The translations under genes and the position numbers were made by a program. 7,153 bases of DNA from a virus (Duplodnaviria > Heunggongvirae > Uroviricota > Caudoviricetes): IMG/VR virus record IMGVR_UViG_2547132272_000010, positions 1 through 7,153 of that record; one strand, given 5' to 3'. Below the pieces are notes generated by a model. The model was given only the letters and a program-made list of their open reading frames with translations. It was not told the DNA's origin and made no database searches. Shown here in pieces: positions 1 to 7,153 of the stretch; position 1 is the first letter of the stretch; every line of letters begins with the position of its first letter.

Positions 1-22
1 CTAAATCAGTAAGTTGGCAGCA

Positions 23-295
23 TCACCCAATAACAGTATACTTTTTCATCACAATATCATCTTTCGAAGCATGAGAAATAATCTGGTTTGATAAAGTATA
101 CTTAAAAAATTTAGCAATATCTGGAGCGATAGGAGCTTTAATGATTTTAAAATCGAATTTATCAACAACTCTTGCGGTTCTACTCATACCCGCTTTAAGA
201 TGTCTAGTAATGAAATACAACGATATTTTCGCCGCATCATCATCCTTAAGTTGCTCAGCATACTCTAATAATTCTTCAAGCTTTAACATTTTCAT
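23..295 (-). CDS. Hypothetical 90-aa soluble protein; second gene of the AT-rich two-gene cargo operon
   Basis: ATG at 295-293 (verified), stop TGA at 25-23. Start overlaps the upstream gene stop in an ATGA arrangement (292-295), implying translational coupling. Same AT-rich composition as the upstream gene. No recognisable motif. Confidence 0.6.
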   Translation of the reverse strand: MKMLKLEELLEYAEQLKDDDAAKISLYFITRHLKAGMSRTARVVDKFDFKIIKAPIAPDIAKFFKYTLSNQIISHASKDDIVMKKYTVIG

Positions 296-906
296 TCCTT
301 ATGGGATTCAGCATAAAAAAGTTTTGGGCCCACGTCCTCAACATCAAGAAGATCATCTTCCTCCAAATACTTTGATTTAGTCAAAACCATACCAGTGCGT
401 TTTTTGTCGCTTTCTAAATCCAAATATGTAACTTGATATAAAGTATAATTAATACTTATTGTAGGATTTATAAGTATCATGCTTGAATTAATATATATTA
501 AAGCCGTTACCGTTAACAATATTGCTATTGGTATAACATTAGTTAAAGTGGATAGATCCTGAAATACAAACGGAATTATATATGTAAAAAGATAGCTTAT
601 TGATTCATTGTTTTTATTTTCAATATCTATAACTCTTACAGTTCTACCACTAGTGGCGCATCGACGTTTTATATTTTTTAAAAAAATTGTTAATCCTACA
701 ATACCAAATAATGATAATACACCAATGACACTGACCGCGCCAAAGTATTTAAAGAAAATAGTTAATGATTCAACACTTATACCTTTCCAATTTAAATAGC
801 TTCTATAAGTATACAATTGCACAAAACACATGATAAAGAATAGGGGAAGGTATGACACTATAAATAGCGAAACTCTAGCACCTAAATGTAGTTTATTTAC
901 TCTCAT
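292..906 (-). CDS. Hypothetical 204-aa integral membrane protein with four predicted TM helices and an acidic C-terminal tail; first gene of the AT-rich cargo operon
   Basis: ATG at 906-904 (verified). Hydrophobic stretches at about residues 12-32, 55-76, 102-115 and 123-147, then a hydrophilic tail rich in E/D/K. Very AT-rich codon usage unlike the neighbouring prophage genes. No catalytic motif recognised. Confidence 0.65.
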   Translation of the reverse strand: MRVNKLHLGARVSLFIVSYLPLFFIMCFVQLYTYRSYLNWKGISVESLTIFFKYFGAVSVIGVLSLFGIVGLTIFLKNIKRRCATSGRTVRVIDIENKNNESISYLFTYIIPFVFQDLSTLTNVIPIAILLTVTALIYINSSMILINPTISINYTLYQVTYLDLESDKKRTGMVLTKSKYLEEDDLLDVEDVGPKLFYAESHKE

Positions 907-1168
907 AACTACCCCACAGCCTACACGTCTAGTATTTTATGTTATTTCGAATAATTATGCATCAGATTACCATCCTACAATTGTGCATAAAACGAGCATT
1001 TTGCTGATTTTTCTGCGGATGCCTGAGACAGACAACCTCAAGCACCCGCAGCAATTCTACTTAACTCTCCTTTTCCCGCAAACCGTTTTTATCCCCATCG
1101 GCAAATCGAATACACCACCAGCGCCACCGCCATCGCAATTCCTACCGTGGTGAATGCCTCAGGCCGGG

Positions 1169-1792
1169 TCATTGATTCACCTCCTGCGGTGGTTCCGGTA
1201 GCGGCATCCAGTGAGTTGAGCTCTCTACTTCGACGCCGTCTTTGTCCACAAAAGCCATCTTATTCCCGCCACGAGTGGGGCAAAAAACCTTATCCCATGA
1301 ACCGGGGAATACATTCCCGAGATCATCGCGAAGAATCACATCGCAATATTCAGCAGGAACTGCATCACTACAGCTTATCCAGCCAGCCGGAGTTCCCGGG
1401 GAGCTGGTTGACGTTTCCGAGATTTCCCGAAAATTGTTGGTTGACGAATTCTTATTTTCCCGGAAGTTTCCGGCCTGAAGCATGGCGACGCGGCAGGCGT
1501 TCCAGCCATCAGCATATGTTTCAGTTACACCGTCGAGATGACAAGTAAGCAAATCCATTTCATCAGGCACTACCATCGCTGGCGGCGCTGCGTAAAGCGG
1601 TGTTATTTCTGCCCGAAAGTCACCTATTTCATGCAGTCGCACACACCGCTCGACTTCTGCTTTGTCAGAATACATAGTGGTGAACGTATTATATTCATTG
1701 TCAATTTGCGTGAAGGTTGCCTTCCACGCCACTGGCTCTGCTTCCAGTGATGCCAGTGCTATTTTGAATAACTCGCACTCTACCCATGCCAT
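1169..1792 (-). CDS. DUF551-domain phage protein (C-terminal ...GWIS...THWMPLPEPP motif)
   Basis: C-terminal HWMPLPEPP motif typical of DUF551 proteins in enterobacterial prophages. The ORF track extends to 1963 but that start is TTG, lacks an RBS and overlaps the 72-aa ORF; the first in-frame ATG is at 1792-1790. An N-terminal extension (to 1963) cannot be excluded. Confidence 0.65.
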   Translation of the reverse strand: MAWVECELFKIALASLEAEPVAWKATFTQIDNEYNTFTTMYSDKAEVERCVRLHEIGDFRAEITPLYAAPPAMVVPDEMDLLTCHLDGVTETYADGWNACRVAMLQAGNFRENKNSSTNNFREISETSTSSPGTPAGWISCSDAVPAEYCDVILRDDLGNVFPGSWDKVFCPTRGGNKMAFVDKDGVEVESSTHWMPLPEPPQEVNQ

Positions 1793-1874
1793 CTCTGAAT
1801 TGGGGTGACATTTCGCAACCGCTATTTTTAATTTGGCTTCTTCAATTAATTGTTCTTTGGTTAATTCAGTTATT

Positions 1875-2093
1875 TCAGTTTTCCTTATATGGATTAATTT
1901 TGTTGTGTAGCGCCCTGAATGGTTCCCATACCATATCGATATACAGTTCAACAATCGGCTCAAATATTTTTCCGATTATCCAAATCAGAAACAGCAGGTT
2001 TATCGGTATCATCAACACGATAAACAGAATGAGAAACAGAAATTCTGTTGTTCTACTCTTTCGCGGATATTTTTTTCTAAATAATGTGACCAT
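1875..2093 (-). CDS. Small (72 aa) single-pass membrane protein in an AT-rich islet; possible moron
   Basis: ATG at 2093-2091 (verified). Basic N-terminus (RKKYPRKSR) followed by a ~24-residue hydrophobic helix, consistent with the positive-inside rule. Weak RBS; AT-richness inflates hydrophobic ORFs, so confidence is modest. Confidence 0.4.
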   Translation of the reverse strand: MVTLFRKKYPRKSRTTEFLFLILFIVLMIPINLLFLIWIIGKIFEPIVELYIDMVWEPFRALHNKINPYKEN

Positions 2094-2187
2094 TCATTAC
2101 CGCCCTTTCAGGCGGCCTCCCGATGTTCTGAGGGTGCAGAAATCCCTCCGGTTAAGGATTAAATTTTATTTACAACACTAAATTTAA

Positions 2188-2742
2188 TTATTCAGGCGCG
2201 CGAATCTGTTCCGCACAATGCAACAATGCTTCTGTCACTTCCTTAAGCGTTACGGTATCGGCATCATCCAGTCCTGCAACTTTTGCGTGCCTGACAAACG
2301 CCGCGCGAAGCTCGTTAAACGCCACCGCCCGTACATCAGCCAGGAAAGCATCTGTAGCCGAGGTTTGCGGCATACCTCCGTCTGTTGCGCAGATATACGC
2401 ATCAGATAGTTCATCCTGCTCGCCATCAAACACGTAGCAACTCTGTACGATAAATTTATTCAGCTCCGCATTCTCCGCCGCAAGTGCAGCAAGATTAGTC
2501 TCCAGCTCTGCAATGCGTTTGCTTTGGGCTTCCCGTTCATCAAGCACTGCCAGCACGGTAGCCGGATTGGCTGCTGCTATGAATCGCTTATTGGCGCGAT
2601 TATCTGGTCCTGAGCATGATGCTATGTAGTAATTTGCGTTCAGTCCGGCATCAGCAATTAACCCATAATCATCAGAACACCATTCGCCAGGGGTTGCATT
2701 TTCTGCCGCCATTCGCAGTGCCTGGTAATTAATGTTGCTCAC
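2188..2742 (-). CDS. ead/Ea22-like family phage protein
   Basis: N-terminal ...[18 protein letters not shown]... resembles the ead/Ea22-like family, with a coiled-coil-like middle ([20 protein letters not shown]). The ORF-track start at 2772 is TTG; GTG at 2742-2740 is preceded by AGGAGG at good spacing and is preferred; ATG at 2712 is an alternative. Overlaps the upstream gene end. Confidence 0.65.
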
Positions 2743-3472
2743 TGGTTTCCTCCTGGCAAAGCTGGGCGACAATATCGCGATATTTATTCAGCTCCCGCAG
2801 CGCGCCACAGACTCGCTCCCATTTCCGGATATCACTTTTCGCCCGACGCAGTTCGCGGTTTGCCTGTCGCAGCGATGGCAGAACCAGATTATCCACTCGC
2901 TTCTCAAGCGGCTGCACAATGTCCGCCACAGTTTCTGTTTTAATATCTTCCTGTGTTGCAGCTTCCTGTACTGGTAACGCAACACATGCAGGCTGAGGAA
3001 AGGCTTTACCATCAGTTTCCGCTACCGATGCCGTTTTCGGCTCTGCTGGTAAATTACCGCCCGGCATGCAGTAACGAAATTTACCGTTCTGATTAACACG
3101 AATCAGACGACCTTTGCTGATTGCCATTGCCAGCGTTGAAGCCACTTTGCGGGATGTTGTACCGAACAGCGTAGCCAGTTCATCCGCCGTTTGTGATCCG
3201 CGTTGTTCAATCGTCGCGGTTAAATCGCACTCTGAGATTTTCGCTACTGTCGCCGTGGTGGTTTCTTCCGGCTGTTCTTCTGGCGCTGGCTGTTCCTGCT
3301 GAACGTTGTTATCAGCCACACGCCAGGTGTATACGCTTTTATCAACGAAGCCAGCCTTTTTCAGTTCCCACAGCTCGTTCAGTACTTCTTCACGACTGAT
3401 ATCAAGTCGCGCAGCCAGCTCTACCGACGTGGCTTTTCCCATCGCTTTCAGTGCGTCAAAAACAGTCTCCAT
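2729..3472 (-). CDS. Phage winged-helix protein, DUF1627-like (two wHTH-like segments separated by an acidic/Q-rich linker)
   Basis: ATG at 3472-3470 (verified), preceded by GGGAGG. N-terminal ...[28 protein letters not shown]... and a second HTH-like ...[28 protein letters not shown]... Family name is from memory, not a search. Confidence 0.7.
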
Positions 3473-3492
3473 AAATTTCCTCCCGGTAAAAA

Positions 3493-4239
3493 TTACTTTT
3501 CAATACCTGGCTGACCAACATTCGGGCGCCAGCTCTCCCAGTTAAAATTCACCCAGCGCCCGCCGTTCATGGTCATGCGATCCATAATCCGCTCGCCGAG
3601 CAATGTTTTCATGGCCTCATAGTTCAGGTTTGTCAGCATTCCCACGCTACGCATCGACGCTGTCCGTCGATCAATAATCTGGTGCAGTACCACCTGCTCG
3701 TTTTTCGTCTCGCGCTGAATGCCAATTTCATCAAGAACCAGCAGCTCCACTTCGCACAGTTCCCGCAAAAATTTTTCGCCTGACTGCCCGTCGTCATAGC
3801 TGGCGTGCAGGGCGCTCATAACATCAGCCACGGTAACCACAATCACTGTCTGACCGTCTTTCAGCAGGCGATTCCCGATAGCTGCCGCTAAGTGATTCTT
3901 CCCGGTACCAGGTTTTCCGCTGAATGCAAAATTTGTACACCCGGTCATCAGTTCATCGGCGATGGATTTCGCCTGGCTTAACGCGTATCGCTGGCCGTCG
4001 TTCTGCACCTGGTAATTCGCAAACGAGCATTTACGGTGCAACGGCTGGATGCCTGAGCGATTCAGAATTTTTTCCACCCGCAACTGGCGATTCAGGCGGT
4101 TGATCTCCTCGCTACGTTTCTGGCCTTCAGCAAGTTGCCACTCGCGCCACTCCGCAACCGTTCTGAATGGAGCGGTTACATGTGGTGGGGCCAGTCTGCG
4201 GATACGCTCCAGAACGCCTCCTGTCGCAATATTTTTCAT
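3493..4239 (-). CDS. ydaV: DnaC-like replicative helicase loader (phage P-equivalent), AAA+ ATPase
   Basis: 248 aa; Walker [18 protein letters not shown] (the GKN variant also found in E. coli DnaC), Walker B LLVLDEIG, and a C-terminus closely resembling DnaC (...GERIMDRM...). ATG at 4239-4237 (verified) with an upstream AGGGGG. Confidence 0.88.
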
Positions 4240-4245
4240 GGTCTG

Positions 4246-5034
4246 TTACCCCCTGAAGCCTGGCGGGATCGCACTGTCCGGCAACGAGACGGTGTTAACC
4301 TGTCGGAGCAACGTCTCAGGCCGAACACCTTTCGGCGCGAACAGGCCCTGGTATTCATTGGCGATGCTGTGTCGAATCACCTGCTCAGGTGTAAAACCCT
4401 GCTGACGGAATTTTTCCAGTTCCCGTATCGCCCCGTTAGCGCCCTGCTCCGTTCGAATCGGTTTTCGCAATGCCTGTCTGAACCGGACCCACTCATGCCA
4501 GAGTGTTTCCGGCAACCAATCGGGCAGCTCAATAGCCTCCGGCTCGAATTTTTTAGACGCTCGTTTTTGGCGAGGGGGATTTAGGGGGAGATCAGTATTT
4601 AGATCTTCCTCTTCCTCTTCCTCTGGTAACGCTTTTTGATCCGTTTGTGTAACGCCGGCAGCGTTACCTTTTCGTTTCAGTTCACGTATTTTTGTAACTC
4701 GCTCGTTTGTAACCGCCCGTTTTTTAGAGCTTTTTCCGTTATGGCGTTCAAAGTTAGGTAGAGAAAGCCCAACGTCATTTTCGACCAGCCATCCAACCTG
4801 AATTAACGCATCAGCAAAACCAGCCATAAAAGTGATGCGATCTATTGCACTTTTTGTAACGCCGCGAGCGTTACAATCTGCATTACCGTCTATCATTTGT
4901 TGATCCGCCCATGCCCAGAAGCGAATAACCTTCCCTAATGCGGCATCTGGATCAATATTCAGAATCTCAGCAAGCCTGAATATTTCCGGCTTATCCGGCG
5001 TAATAACCTCGAGCTTTATCCAGTTTGAAGCCAT
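4246..5034 (-). CDS. ydaU: YdaU-like replication initiation protein (lambda O-equivalent), two domains joined by an EEEEEE linker
   Basis: Sits between the CII-like gene and the DnaC-like loader, as O sits before P. ATG at 5034-5032 (verified), AAGGTGA RBS. Contains internal 21-bp palindromes and an acidic linker, as in ori-within-O genes. Family assignment is by synteny and memory. Confidence 0.75.
   Translation of the reverse strand: MASNWIKLEVITPDKPEIFRLAEILNIDPDAALGKVIRFWAWADQQMIDGNADCNARGVTKSAIDRITFMAGFADALIQVGWLVENDVGLSLPNFERHNGKSSKKRAVTNERVTKIRELKRKGNAAGVTQTDQKALPEEEEEEDLNTDLPLNPPRQKRASKKFEPEAIELPDWLPETLWHEWVRFRQALRKPIRTEQGANGAIRELEKFRQQGFTPEQVIRHSIANEYQGLFAPKGVRPETLLRQVNTVSLPDSAIPPGFRG
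4648..4668. repeat. 21-bp palindrome TGTAACGC-CGGCA-GCGTTAC(C), copy 1, inside the ydaU-like gene
   Basis: Read directly from the sequence. Flanked by further GTAACGC / TTGTAAC half-sites at 4626-4632, 4692-4698 and 4707-4713. Confidence 0.7.
4855..4875. repeat. 21-bp palindrome TGTAACGC-CGCGA-GCGTTACA, copy 2, inside the ydaU-like gene
   Basis: Perfect 8-bp arms; read directly from the sequence. Encodes NARGVT on the coding strand. Confidence 0.7.
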
Positions 5035-5046
5035 TTGTTTTCACCT

Positions 5047-5067
5047 TGTAACGCTCGCAGCGTTACA
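5047..5067. repeat. 21-bp palindrome TGTAACGC-TCGCA-GCGTTACA, copy 3, in the ydaT-ydaU intergenic region just upstream of the ydaU-like RBS
   Basis: Perfect 8-bp arms; lies about 13 nt upstream of the ydaU-like start codon, adjacent to the AAGGTGA RBS. Confidence 0.7.
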
Positions 5068-5111
5068 TTTAACTGATACCGAACAAAACAATCCGGCACG
5101 ATTAATTTCAA

Positions 5112-5534
5112 TCAATGCACTACGACAGAATCACCGGACGACCCACCACCGCTGAAATGTGCTTTCCGGTAAACGGCCTGGACTGCATCATCATGCGCAT
5201 CAATTGCCGTACTCAACGCTTCCTGCGCCGCCAGTAATGCACGGCGTTCCAGGGTATCGAAGATGCAGAGTCGGTGACGCAGCTCGCGCGGAAGAATTGC
5301 CAGAACCGCAGGGATCAGTGTCTGAATTTTTTCCCTTTGCGCTTTCGTTTCACCTTTTAACCAACGGTGATAGATGTTCTGCTGATTATTCCAGTCCTTG
5401 CCTGGTACCAGGGGCAATTCGCCGCCCCCCTGGCGCAGATATTCTTCAGTAATTGCATTGGCTACCCATGCCTGCCCTTTTTCAGCGGCCAGGGCTAACA
5501 GCACTGATTCGATGTGCTCATGCCTGATTTTCAT
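5112..5534 (-). CDS. ydaT: YdaT (140 aa), CII-like regulator / reported toxin of Rac-type prophages
   Basis: 140 aa, matching YdaT length; immediately downstream of the Cro-like gene and overlapping it by 17 nt. ATG at 5534-5532 (verified) with AGGAG about 9 nt upstream. Confidence 0.82.
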   Translation of the reverse strand: MKIRHEHIESVLLALAAEKGQAWVANAITEEYLRQGGGELPLVPGKDWNNQQNIYHRWLKGETKAQREKIQTLIPAVLAILPRELRHRLCIFDTLERRALLAAQEALSTAIDAHDDAVQAVYRKAHFSGGGSSGDSVVVH

Positions 5535-5793
5535 GAATCAACTCCTGTGCATTTTGTGTGTTAGCCTTACATCCAACAGGTAAACCATCGGTCGGATTCG
5601 GGTAGATATCAGGCCGGAGTTCATGAGGTGTAACCTCGAAATTCGTAGCCTCTGCGATACGCAATACCTTTTCAGGGCTTAACTGACTACGTCCAGTAGC
5701 AACGAGGCTAATCATTGATTGCGAACAACCAGCCAGCGCGGCCAAACAAGACTGTCGTACACGATTTTTTTTCAAATATTCATCTAATGTCAT
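5518..5793 (-). CDS. ydaS: YdaS, Cro-like HTH regulator (XRE/YdaS family)
   Basis: HTH segment QSCLAALAGCSQSMISLVATGRSQ and a ...TPHELRPDIYP... motif. The ORF-track start (ATG 5832) has no RBS; the in-frame ATG at 5793-5791 is preceded by AAGGTGA, so the shorter 91-aa form is called. Divergent from the repressor gene. Confidence 0.8.
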   Translation of the reverse strand: MTLDEYLKKNRVRQSCLAALAGCSQSMISLVATGRSQLSPEKVLRIAEATNFEVTPHELRPDIYPNPTDGLPVGCKANTQNAQELIHENQA

Positions 5794-5897
5794 AAGGGTC
5801 ACCTTAGTAATATTCGCCAAAATATTAACCATACTAATTTAAATGATCAATACTTATATCAGTTTGAGATTATGAGCTGTGTTCATAAGATGGTGGT
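5794..5897. promoter_or_regulatory. Divergent control region between ydaS (-) and racR (+), with two inverted-repeat operator candidates and predicted promoters
   Basis: IR1 TAATATT-N6-AATATTA at 5808-5827; IR2 TTATGA-N7-TCATAA at 5870-5888. Predicted minus-strand promoter for ydaS: -35 TTGATC (complement of 5845-5850), 17-nt spacer, -10 TAATAT (complement of 5822-5827), overlapping IR1. Possible racR promoter: TTGAGA-like -35 near 5865-5870 and TAAGAT-like -10 near 5887-5892. Confidence 0.5.
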
Positions 5898-6362
5898 ATG
5901 AGAAGAAAACGCGAAGAAATCGCATCGCCAGAAGCTACGCAGCGTCTACGCGGAATATGGGATGCAAAAAAAAGAGAGCTCAAATTGACTCAGGAGCTTG
6001 CTGCCGAGCTAATGGGCTTTGAGACGCAATCTACGGTTAGCCACTATCTCAACGGAAAGGCTCCACTTAACACTGATGCGGCATTAAAATTCGCAGTATT
6101 GCTAAGAGTTAAGCCTGAAGACTTGAGGCCTGATTTAGCTGATCTGATGAATTACGTCCGTTCATCTGGAACTTATGACGAAAGTTTCGAAGGCGAAGGG
6201 TGGCGGATGGTTAACAAGCAACAAGCTGATTTACTGGATCTTTTTGATATCCTCCCCGAATCAGAAAAAGCAAAACTAATCGAAAGGCTTAAAGGCCAGA
6301 ATGAACTCTACAAAGAAGCGTTTGAAAATATGCTGGCAGCTCAGAAACGCATGAAGAAATAG
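5898..6362 (+). CDS. racR: RacR-like prophage repressor (CI-equivalent), HTH protein
   Basis: 154 aa; HTH-like segment LTQELAAELMGFETQSTVSHYLNGK. Divergent from ydaS-ydaT, the classic Rac immunity arrangement. ATG at 5898 with stop TAG at 6360-6362, followed by an intrinsic terminator. Confidence 0.82.
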   Translation: MRRKREEIASPEATQRLRGIWDAKKRELKLTQELAAELMGFETQSTVSHYLNGKAPLNTDAALKFAVLLRVKPEDLRPDLADLMNYVRSSGTYDESFEGEGWRMVNKQQADLLDLFDILPESEKAKLIERLKGQNELYKEAFENMLAAQKRMKK

Positions 6363-6382
6363 CCCCCACTACCTCGTAACTA

Positions 6383-6407
6383 AACCGCCATCCCTGGCGG
6401 TTTTTTT
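6383..6407 (+). terminator. Rho-independent terminator downstream of racR
   Basis: Perfect 8-bp stem AACCGCCA / TGGCGGTT (6383-6390 with 6395-6402), 4-nt loop TCCC, followed by a T7 run (6401-6407). Confidence 0.85.
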
Positions 6408-6477
6408 GTCCCCTGCGCCCCCATCGCCTTACTTTTTTATCAAAAAAAACACTAAAATTTTCATTAGGATAGTACAT

Positions 6478-6540
6478 TTTTATCAACAAAATGCATATTT
6501 ATGTTGATCATCAATATGAATATAACTAATATTATTGCAG
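6478..6540 (+). promoter_or_regulatory. Putative promoter and operator for the ydaG-ydaF small-gene pair
   Basis: -35 TTGATC (6504-6509), 17-nt spacer, -10 TAATAT (6527-6532), the same hexamer pair as the predicted ydaS promoter. Inverted repeat ATCAACA-N13-TGTTGAT (6482-6508) overlaps the -35. AT-rich UP-like tract upstream. Inferred by eye. Confidence 0.35.
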
Positions 6541-6598
6541 AAGCAGCACGGCGCTGTAGGTTTTAGTTCCGCCACCCGGCGTTAAGGGGAGAGATAAG

Positions 6599-6733
6599 AT
6601 GGTGCATTACGAAGTAGTTCAGTATTTGATGGATTGTTGCGGTATCACTTACAACCAGGCTGTGCAGGCTTTACGCAGCAACGACTGGGATCTCTGGCAG
6701 GCAGAAGCCTCTATCCGCAACAACAAAATGTGA
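6599..6733 (+). CDS. ydaG: YdaG-like small protein (44 aa)
   Basis: ATG at 6599, stop TGA at 6731-6733; SD AAGGGGAG about 8 nt upstream. Translation MVHYEVVQYLMDCCGITYNQAVQALRSNDWDLWQAEASIRNNKM. Absent from the ORF track (below its size cutoff). Position downstream of racR matches Rac synteny. Confidence 0.65.
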   Translation: MVHYEVVQYLMDCCGITYNQAVQALRSNDWDLWQAEASIRNNKM

Positions 6734-6743
6734 GGTGCGAAAA

Positions 6744-6896
6744 ATGCAAAAAATCGACCTCGGCAATAACGAATCCCAGGTGTGCGGCGTGTTCCCCAAC
6801 CAGGATGGAACGTTCACCGCCATGACTTATACCAAAAGCAAAACATTTAAAACAGAAACAGGCGCACGTCGCTGGCTTGCCAGAAATACTTGCTAA
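6744..6896 (+). CDS. ydaF: YdaF-like small protein (50 aa)
   Basis: ATG at 6744, stop TAA at 6894-6896; SD GAGGTG 5 nt upstream. Translation MQKIDLGNNESQVCGVFPNQDGTFTAMTYTKSKTFKTETGARRWLARNTC. The supplied 6634..6825 ORF is in a different frame and lacks an RBS. Confidence 0.65.
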   Translation: MQKIDLGNNESQVCGVFPNQDGTFTAMTYTKSKTFKTETGARRWLARNTC

Positions 6897-7153
6897 TCCA
6901 TTATTTGGATTAATTCAATATTCTCGCTGTAGGGGTATAGCAGAAACCACCAAAGCCCGGAGGTGGTGAAATAAAACCGGGCACAACACGAAGGCGCATT
7001 TCCGATATCCATAAAGAGTCGGTCTTGTCTGTTAAATTTAAATGGTGGGAGTGCGCCTCCGGTTGTGAATAACAACACTGCTGTGTGTAGTCTTGGCGGC
7101 ATCAGTTTTTTCTTGAAGTTCGACTGATGTCCGCCCTTTTTAAAGTGAATTTT
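6893..7153 (-). CDS. 3' end of a minus-strand ORF running off the right edge; possibly a sieB-like superinfection-exclusion gene (partial)
   Basis: The reading frame is open from the window edge (7153) to stop TGA at 6895-6893, with no stop in my hand translation. Convergent with ydaF, stop codons overlapping. Identity as sieB is from Rac synteny only; the translation is not clearly protein-like. Confidence 0.3.
   Translation of the reverse strand, partial: KIHFKKGGHQSNFKKKLMPPRLHTAVLLFTTGGALPPFKFNRQDRLFMDIGNAPSCCARFYFTTSGLWWFLLYPYSENIELIQIMD

Follow-up and report, generated by a model that had tools for sequence, protein, structure and literature searches.

The locus raises the question of what the AT-rich block at its left end encodes. 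The original prediction had described there two coupled minus-strand genes, for a membrane protein with an acidic tail and for a soluble protein of 90 aa, had found neither assignable to a family and had proposed the pair as a candidate for an undescribed defence-like system carried as separately acquired cargo. The window (the whole stretch of DNA analysed, 7,153 nt) shows a large step in composition. Computed on the whole window, the G+C fraction was 0.309 at 28-1018 vs 0.482 at 1019-7153, and the lowest value of any 991-nt segment within 1019-7153 was 0.414 or above. Windows of 300 nt gave 0.28-0.35 across 1-1050 and about 0.50 beyond. The AT-rich block that had been predicted is thus present, with its end at 1018/1019 and not at 1010. 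A second AT-rich patch, with a G+C fraction of 0.34-0.39, was observed at about 1800-2250. The features of the left-hand block and its border are as follows.

1..27, no strand assigned: terminal 27 nt of IS1 with the insA-proximal inverted repeat (by identity to IS1A), the rest of IS1 lying to the left of the window.
23..295, minus strand: chimeric 90-aa ORF, in which a 5' fragment of kwaB is read through into IS1 (ORF list and PADLOC KwaB model).
28..289, minus strand: 5' fragment of kwaB, a pseudogene remnant (identical to kwaB of the intact CEA224S locus).
292..906, minus strand: kwaA, intact, for the 204-aa Kiwa membrane protein (PADLOC KwaA model and RefSeq identity).
907..1018, minus strand: AT-rich leader preceding kwaA in the Kiwa cassette (by comparison of loci with and without Kiwa).
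1019..1060, no strand assigned: mosaic border where the cassette meets the prophage backbone (alignments of Kiwa-less prophages and of free phages begin only at 1019).

The larger of the two ORFs was identified by profile searches and by database identity. The 204-aa protein matched the PADLOC KwaA model PDLC00212 over residues 1-203 (E=1.3e-101) and also 11 further models of KwaA subfamilies. It has the same sequence as RefSeq WP_001265627.1, whose label is 'KwaA family protein' in NZ_CP015074.2 and 'hypothetical protein' elsewhere. PF28043 KwaA was assigned to it in precomputed gene calls. The match to the NCBIfam KwaA equivalog NF041622 (81.1 bits, E=8.3e-23) fell under the 100-bit cut-off of that model, which is apparently built around a different subfamily of KwaA, and the PDB entry 'Kiwa protein KwaA' 9mrg was matched with E=3.1e-6 in an alignment spanning residues 61-185. 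In the copy of Pfam that was searched, neither the 204-aa nor the 90-aa ORF had a match, in keeping with neither having been recognised in the original prediction; this negative is misleading because that copy is without the newer KwaA family and because the domain of KwaB lies beyond the truncation described below. Strong hydrophobic segments were located at residues 8-34, 48-79 and 118-147 by a plain Kyte-Doolittle scan, in which a fourth was not resolved, and nine of the last 35 residues are D or E, in agreement with a multi-pass membrane protein with an acidic tail, for which four TM helices had been predicted. ECOR49-type Kiwa was ruled out on residues 76-78 of KwaA, which are L-K-N vs K-V-N.

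The second gene follows on the same strand, with the start of kwaB at 295 or 289 directly after kwaA. An ATGA stop/start overlap between kwaA and the 90-aa ORF is indeed present at 292-295, and the two ORFs exist as predicted, but the RefSeq start of KwaB is two codons downstream of the ATG of this overlap and the alignment to the PADLOC KwaB profile likewise begins at residue 3 of the 90-aa ORF. kwaA and kwaB may therefore in truth be separated by a gap of 2 nt instead of overlapping. The 90-aa ORF matched the PADLOC KwaB model PDLC00223 with E=4.2e-34, over profile positions 1-87 of 339 only. Because this match covers the first quarter of KwaB only and the ORF stops 22 bases short of the edge of the window, a truncation was suspected. 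Counted from the RefSeq start, the fragment consists of codons 1-87 plus 1 nt, of 340 codons, and its DNA shows 100% identity to the gene for the intact KwaB of the CEA224S locus, WP_000915482.1 (340 aa). That intact protein aligned to positions 1-338 of 339 of the PADLOC profile (E=1.5e-159), matched the KwaB structure 9mrx in the PDB with E=1.5e-5 and carries PF16162 (KwaB/DUF4868) at residues 130-317, wholly past the break at residue 87. In the 90-aa ORF the final Gly codon, GGG, takes its first base from kwaB and its last two from IS1, and the TGA stop is formed by IS1 bases 3-5. The 90-aa ORF is, on this comparison, kwaB by descent, and its predicted product is without the defining PF16162 domain. 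No record of the exact 90-aa product was found in a sequence look-up, whereas the 88-aa form from the RefSeq start was found. A PHROG 'holin' match (E=0.004) and a PtuB match (E=0.032) of the same ORF were discarded as noise vs the KwaB match at E=4e-34 and the 100% DNA identity to kwaB.

The assignment of both ORFs to Kiwa by the profile searches (PADLOC KwaA and KwaB) reverses the view that the pair belongs to no family, and the short protein is no separate gene product: it comprises KwaB residues 1-87, a Gly completed by IS1 and a stop supplied by IS1. A complete, undescribed two-gene module for defence, exclusion or toxin-immunity, made of a four-TM protein and a genuine 90-aa soluble partner, retains hardly any probability at all. 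Two co-directional, tightly coupled ORFs in AT-rich cargo and the lack of a Pfam match for either in the copy searched would agree with such a module, but the strong Kiwa model matches for both ORFs speak against it, as does the composition of the 90-aa ORF, of which all but the Gly-codon end and the stop is the first 262 nt of a 1023-nt kwaB; KwaB has 340 aa in every intact copy examined. A relation to defence was correctly anticipated; Kiwa, however, is already described and has a published mechanism.

The nature of the truncation was established from the edge of the window. Positions 1-27 coincide (27/27) with the final 27 nt of IS1A, as annotated at 19796-20563 in E. coli K-12 MG1655, and this IS1 end reads GGTGATGCTGCCAACTTACTGATTTAG on the kwaB sense strand. 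A base-by-base comparison of 28-1150 with the intact CEA224S locus gave 0 mismatches. The insertion point is situated after nt 262 of the 1,023-nt kwaB, i.e. after codon 87. The suspicion that the module continues past position 1 was right in spirit.

A megablast search of 1-1150 against 5,426 complete E. coli genomes found the cassette in 156 of them (those with at least 80% of the query covered). Among the matches listed, the top ones begin at about base 21 and never at base 1; the top listed complete genomes with the cassette, the best rows of the 156, are all intact at the IS1 site, and there the gene after kwaA encodes a 340-aa 'Kiwa anti-phage protein KwaB-like domain-containing protein'. 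The kwaB-IS1 junction was present in no complete E. coli RefSeq genome of this collection (5,426). Window positions 1-60 gave about 73,000 matches in 4,975 of the 5,426 genomes, with a median of 10 per genome, as expected for the end of an IS. The 88-aa product is on record on five contigs, and among those listed the junction occurs in at least three places from three samples (ENA ERZ27241745, Logan ERR273781 and Logan SRR5487539), whose three contigs all end in IS1. One of the matching assemblies, a 41-kb metagenome contig from ENA (L004), is 100% identical to the entire window and runs on into IS1 for another 137 nt, of which 136 match IS1A; a Logan contig of 7,160 nt is the window with 7 additional nt. 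Short-read assemblies break at IS1, and this accounts for the position at which the window ends.

The same property of IS1 could have produced a chimeric short-read join between kwaB and IS1 while the real locus is intact, and such an artefact would fit with three junction contigs examined that all stop inside an assembly-breaking repeat and with the absence of the junction from the complete E. coli RefSeq genomes of the collection. It is nevertheless very unlikely: a base-identical junction was obtained in at least three independently assembled samples, those named above, with different assemblers, and its position is the very first base of the inverted repeat of IS1, which is expected for real transposition and not for a random point in a repeat. 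We therefore regard the kwaB-IS1 junction, judged by its recurrence in independent assemblies, as real. If insertion was the only event, the second junction is predicted to consist of the right end of IS1, ...GGAGTCATTACC, an 8-9 bp duplication, CTGTTATTG, and then ATGATGATATTGAC...; an IS1-mediated deletion or rearrangement would instead have joined IS1 to unrelated sequence. The distal three quarters of kwaB may still be present beyond IS1 and, in principle, expressible.

We attribute the segment 28-1018 to the proximal part of a Kiwa cassette in which kwaB was broken by IS1 and which is most likely inactive for defence, with a probability of roughly 0.93. Kiwa was first tested from E. coli O55:H7 RM12579, and five systems were tested by Zhang, Todeschini et al. 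(PMC11785009). KwaA is a tetrameric four-TM protein, and KwaB combines an N-terminal Rossmann-like domain (1-185 of the solved 315-aa protein) with a C-terminal DUF4868 that binds DNA; tetramers of KwaA and dimers of KwaB form a membrane supercomplex, which localises to phage attachment sites, and KwaB on the incoming DNA stalls replication and late transcription (PMC11785009). Deletion of either gene abolished defence in the ECOR8 system; mutation of the 100-103 loop, of Y157 or of the DNA-contacting residues 134-233 of KwaB abolished defence or DNA binding; the loop of KwaB in contact with KwaA is 96-108 (PMC11785009).

Transferred to the locus studied here, an intact copy would hold KwaB dimers on inner-membrane KwaA tetramers in a supercomplex, and KwaB would bind the incoming DNA via DUF4868 and bring replication and late transcription to a stall. 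The insertion of IS1 after nt 262 of kwaB leaves an intact kwaA and a KwaB stub of 88 or 90 aa, which ends inside the N-terminal Rossmann-like domain and is devoid of the whole DNA-binding domain. The DNA-contacting residues 134-233, the KwaA-contact loop 96-108 and Y157 are all C-terminal to the break at residue 87. As both genes are needed (PMC11785009) and kwaB is truncated, defence activity has most likely been lost in the window copy, and the pair in its present form is most likely no working system. The residue-level statements are homology transfers from the solved O55:H7 system, to which this subtype is distant (E of about 1e-5 to 1e-6). The mechanism and the requirement for both genes come from the literature, and the family, the IS1 junction, the truncation point, the boundary and the recurrence from the comparisons made here.

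A broken kwaB need not mean a broken system if the two pieces were both expressed and reassembled, the distal one being transcribed from an outward-reading IS1 promoter or by read-through. KwaB is naturally split in 70 of 9,797 loci, with several independent origins, and is divided there at the domain boundary (PMC11785009); in the window, too, the coding capacity for KwaB falls into two pieces, one N-terminal and one C-terminal. When the distal junction was reconstructed hypothetically, on the assumption of a target duplication of 8 or 9 bp, the distal frame remained open, and an in-frame ATG at residue 100 of intact KwaB would give a predicted ORF of 241 aa starting at M100. The natural splits, however, separate the folded domains at the Rossmann-like/DUF4868 boundary (about residue 185 of the solved protein) and involve no IS, whereas the break in the window is at residue 87, within the N-terminal domain, and is caused by IS1. 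A restart at M100 would moreover drop residues 88-99, and the pieces are separated by a 768-bp IS with genes of its own. A functional split Kiwa has accordingly been given very little probability.

It is also unlikely, though conceivable, that the IS1 insertion represents an adaptive or functional state. Loss of Kiwa could have been selected, as intact Kiwa also lowers plasmid conjugation, and this would explain why the junction is shared by several samples; in another version, KwaA would be an orphan with a role independent of KwaB, e.g. in exclusion or membrane sensing, as a tetramer with or without an 88-aa stub that carries some KwaA-contact residues.

For the preferred reading, a disrupted and most likely inactive Kiwa cassette, the boundary towards the prophage was obtained by comparison with related loci. 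The closest prophage backbones (e.g. RM11911, 97.6% identity) match 1019-7153 only and are without Kiwa, and free phages including 933W and other Stx phages match about 1019-1148 only. In RM11911 hokD directly follows the DUF551 gene with nothing between them; in CEA224S kwaA-kwaB is found between the DUF551 gene and a Hok/Gef gene, and Ecol_745 has this cassette behind a queH gene, in another backbone. The expectation of separately acquired cargo is supported by Kiwa-less backbones that match from 1019 only and by the same cassette in different backbones. The slot of the cassette, as read from these relatives, is between the DUF551 gene and, in the intact relatives, the hok/sok module. Segment 907-1018 was found in all Kiwa-bearing loci and was absent from Kiwa-less backbones; on this distribution, the leader is a part that travels with the Kiwa cassette, and the native leader is kept in the window copy. 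A promoter/terminator scan returned no consensus sigma-70 promoter upstream of kwaA and no terminator; transcription of kwaA may come from a weak promoter of its own or from read-through of the early-right operon.

The BLAST comparison placed the intact cassette at 6021-7997 of the CEA224S locus (L001), with a length of about 1,977 bp and a G+C fraction of 0.32. It is bracketed by imperfect direct copies, with the core CCTCAAGCACCCGC, at 5979-6020 and 7998-8039, and the sequence with this core is single-copy at the empty site, at 5001-5042 of the related locus L007. In the window, an imperfect copy of the hok/sok 5'-edge sequence with the same core is located at 1019-1048, and in intact loci this sequence borders the other side of the Kiwa cassette. 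The Rfam sok family RF01794 matched L001 at 5833-6007 (113 bits), adjoining the cassette, and L007 at 4855-5029 (118 bits), at the empty site; the repeat can therefore be assigned to the 5' edge of the hok/sok module. Since the backbones of the intact copies differ from that of the window, the cassette is mobile between backbones, and the comparison suggests that it does so between lambdoid backbones by recombination at the short conserved CCTCAAGCACCCGC-core sequence. As part of the whole explanation favoured above, and with the confidence attached to it, the Kiwa cassette is interpreted as a moron of a Rac/Qin-like lambdoid prophage, located within its early-right operon.

The Rfam scan of the window itself gave no match. 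In the two related prophage loci, outside the window, weak, sub-threshold matches to isrK were observed immediately downstream of hokD, at L001 5591-5672 and L007 4615-4696 (26.7-31.4 bits vs a gathering score of 50), and these may represent a diverged homologue of isrK, a prophage-borne sRNA in Salmonella.

Compared with the Kiwa system of O55:H7 RM12579, the window has the same order of kwaA then kwaB, tightly coupled on one strand, a full-length match to a subfamily of KwaA in PADLOC, a family described as having four TM helices, and a kwaB fragment identical to the start of the gene for a genuine 340-aa KwaB with PF16162/DUF4868. Unlike that system, it has a kwaB interrupted by IS1 after codon 87, the DNA-binding domain being missing from the window, and its subtype, PDLC00212/PDLC00223, is remote from the solved O55:H7 proteins (E=3e-6 for KwaA and 1.5e-5 for KwaB, the latter via the intact CEA224S protein). 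Intact copies of the cassette include those of CEA224S (NZ_CP166080.1, with WP_001265627.1 and WP_000915482.1), which is 100% identical in nucleotides to window 28-1150, and of Ecol_745 (NZ_CP015074.2). They sit upstream of hok/sok in lambdoid (Qin/Rac-like) prophages and differ from the window in having no IS1, a 340-aa KwaB and otherwise different prophage backbones. Like about half of the Kiwa loci, which are on mobile elements, the window copy is prophage-borne; Kiwa was reported in 9,582 of 223,143 RefSeq genomes, 1,713 of them E. coli (PMC11785009).

Kiwa is represented in PADLOC, NCBIfam, Pfam and the PDB (9mrg, 9mrx, 9o0i), and this subtype, which occurs commonly in E. coli, already bears the name Kiwa in RefSeq. 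The system is already known, and the sole feature specific to the window is the disruption of kwaB by IS1, an ordinary event. The proper label is 'Kiwa system, kwaA intact, kwaB disrupted by IS1 (pseudogene)' and not a new defence system, and beyond this correct annotation the locus is of little importance. Programs that count kwaA plus a KwaB-profile match could mis-score it as a complete Kiwa, and short ORFs that end a few bases from a contig edge should be compared with IS termini before they are called genes. The locus is also a clean case of a defence cassette in a slot beside the hok/sok of lambdoid prophages, and a relative with the empty site exists with which it can be compared.

The remainder of the window is, by its gene content, the early region of a lambdoid (Rac/Qin-like) prophage. 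Genes for a DnaC/IstB-like loader, DUF1627, Ead/Ea22 and DUF551 proteins are also present, the last three directed leftward toward the module. Two further features were assigned in this region.

4246-5034, minus strand: O-like replication initiator, 262 aa (phrog_2509 'replication initiation protein', full-length, E=8.5e-89).
5898..6362, plus strand: cI-like HTH repressor, 154 aa.

The 262-aa initiator, which lies upstream of the DnaC-like loader gene, had no Pfam match. YdaS-like (Cro-type HTH) and YdaT-like genes at 5112-5832 on the minus strand are divergent from the cI-like repressor gene, and YdaS/YdaT opposite a cI-like repressor is an arrangement typical of Rac/Qin-type cryptic prophages. 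Beyond the window, contig L004 carries genes for YdaE, DUF1482 and RecE (exonuclease VIII).

Several short ORFs were noted in addition. A 72-aa ORF at 1875-2093 on the minus strand, inside the second AT-rich patch and with the hydrophobic core MVTLFRKKYPRKSRTTEFLFLILFIVLMIPINLLFLIWIIGKIF..., matched phrog_1832 over its full length (E=2.4e-38) and was found by tblastn in 125 phage records, at less than 80% identity and mostly in Stx and other lambdoid phages. Its annotations are inconsistent ('hypothetical', 'released from the phage upon host infection', 'putative sugar acetyl transferase inhibitor'), and it is missing from the gene calls of the identical contig L004. The first 29 or so codons of the DUF551 ORF (1169-1963, minus strand, TTG start, 260-264 aa) overlap this ORF in another frame; PHROG matches of the DUF551 ORF start at residues 29-32 and its Pfam DUF551 domain is at 194-260. 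The annotated N-terminus of the DUF551 protein is probably too long, and no canonical start for its gene was found just after the stop of the 72-aa ORF. Downstream of the repressor gene, within 6599-6896 on the plus strand, a conserved 44-aa ORF matched phrog_14709 (E=2.7e-36) and a conserved 53-aa ORF matched phrog_751 (E=1.3e-34), the latter corresponding to a 50-aa DUF1391/YdfA-like gene call on L004.
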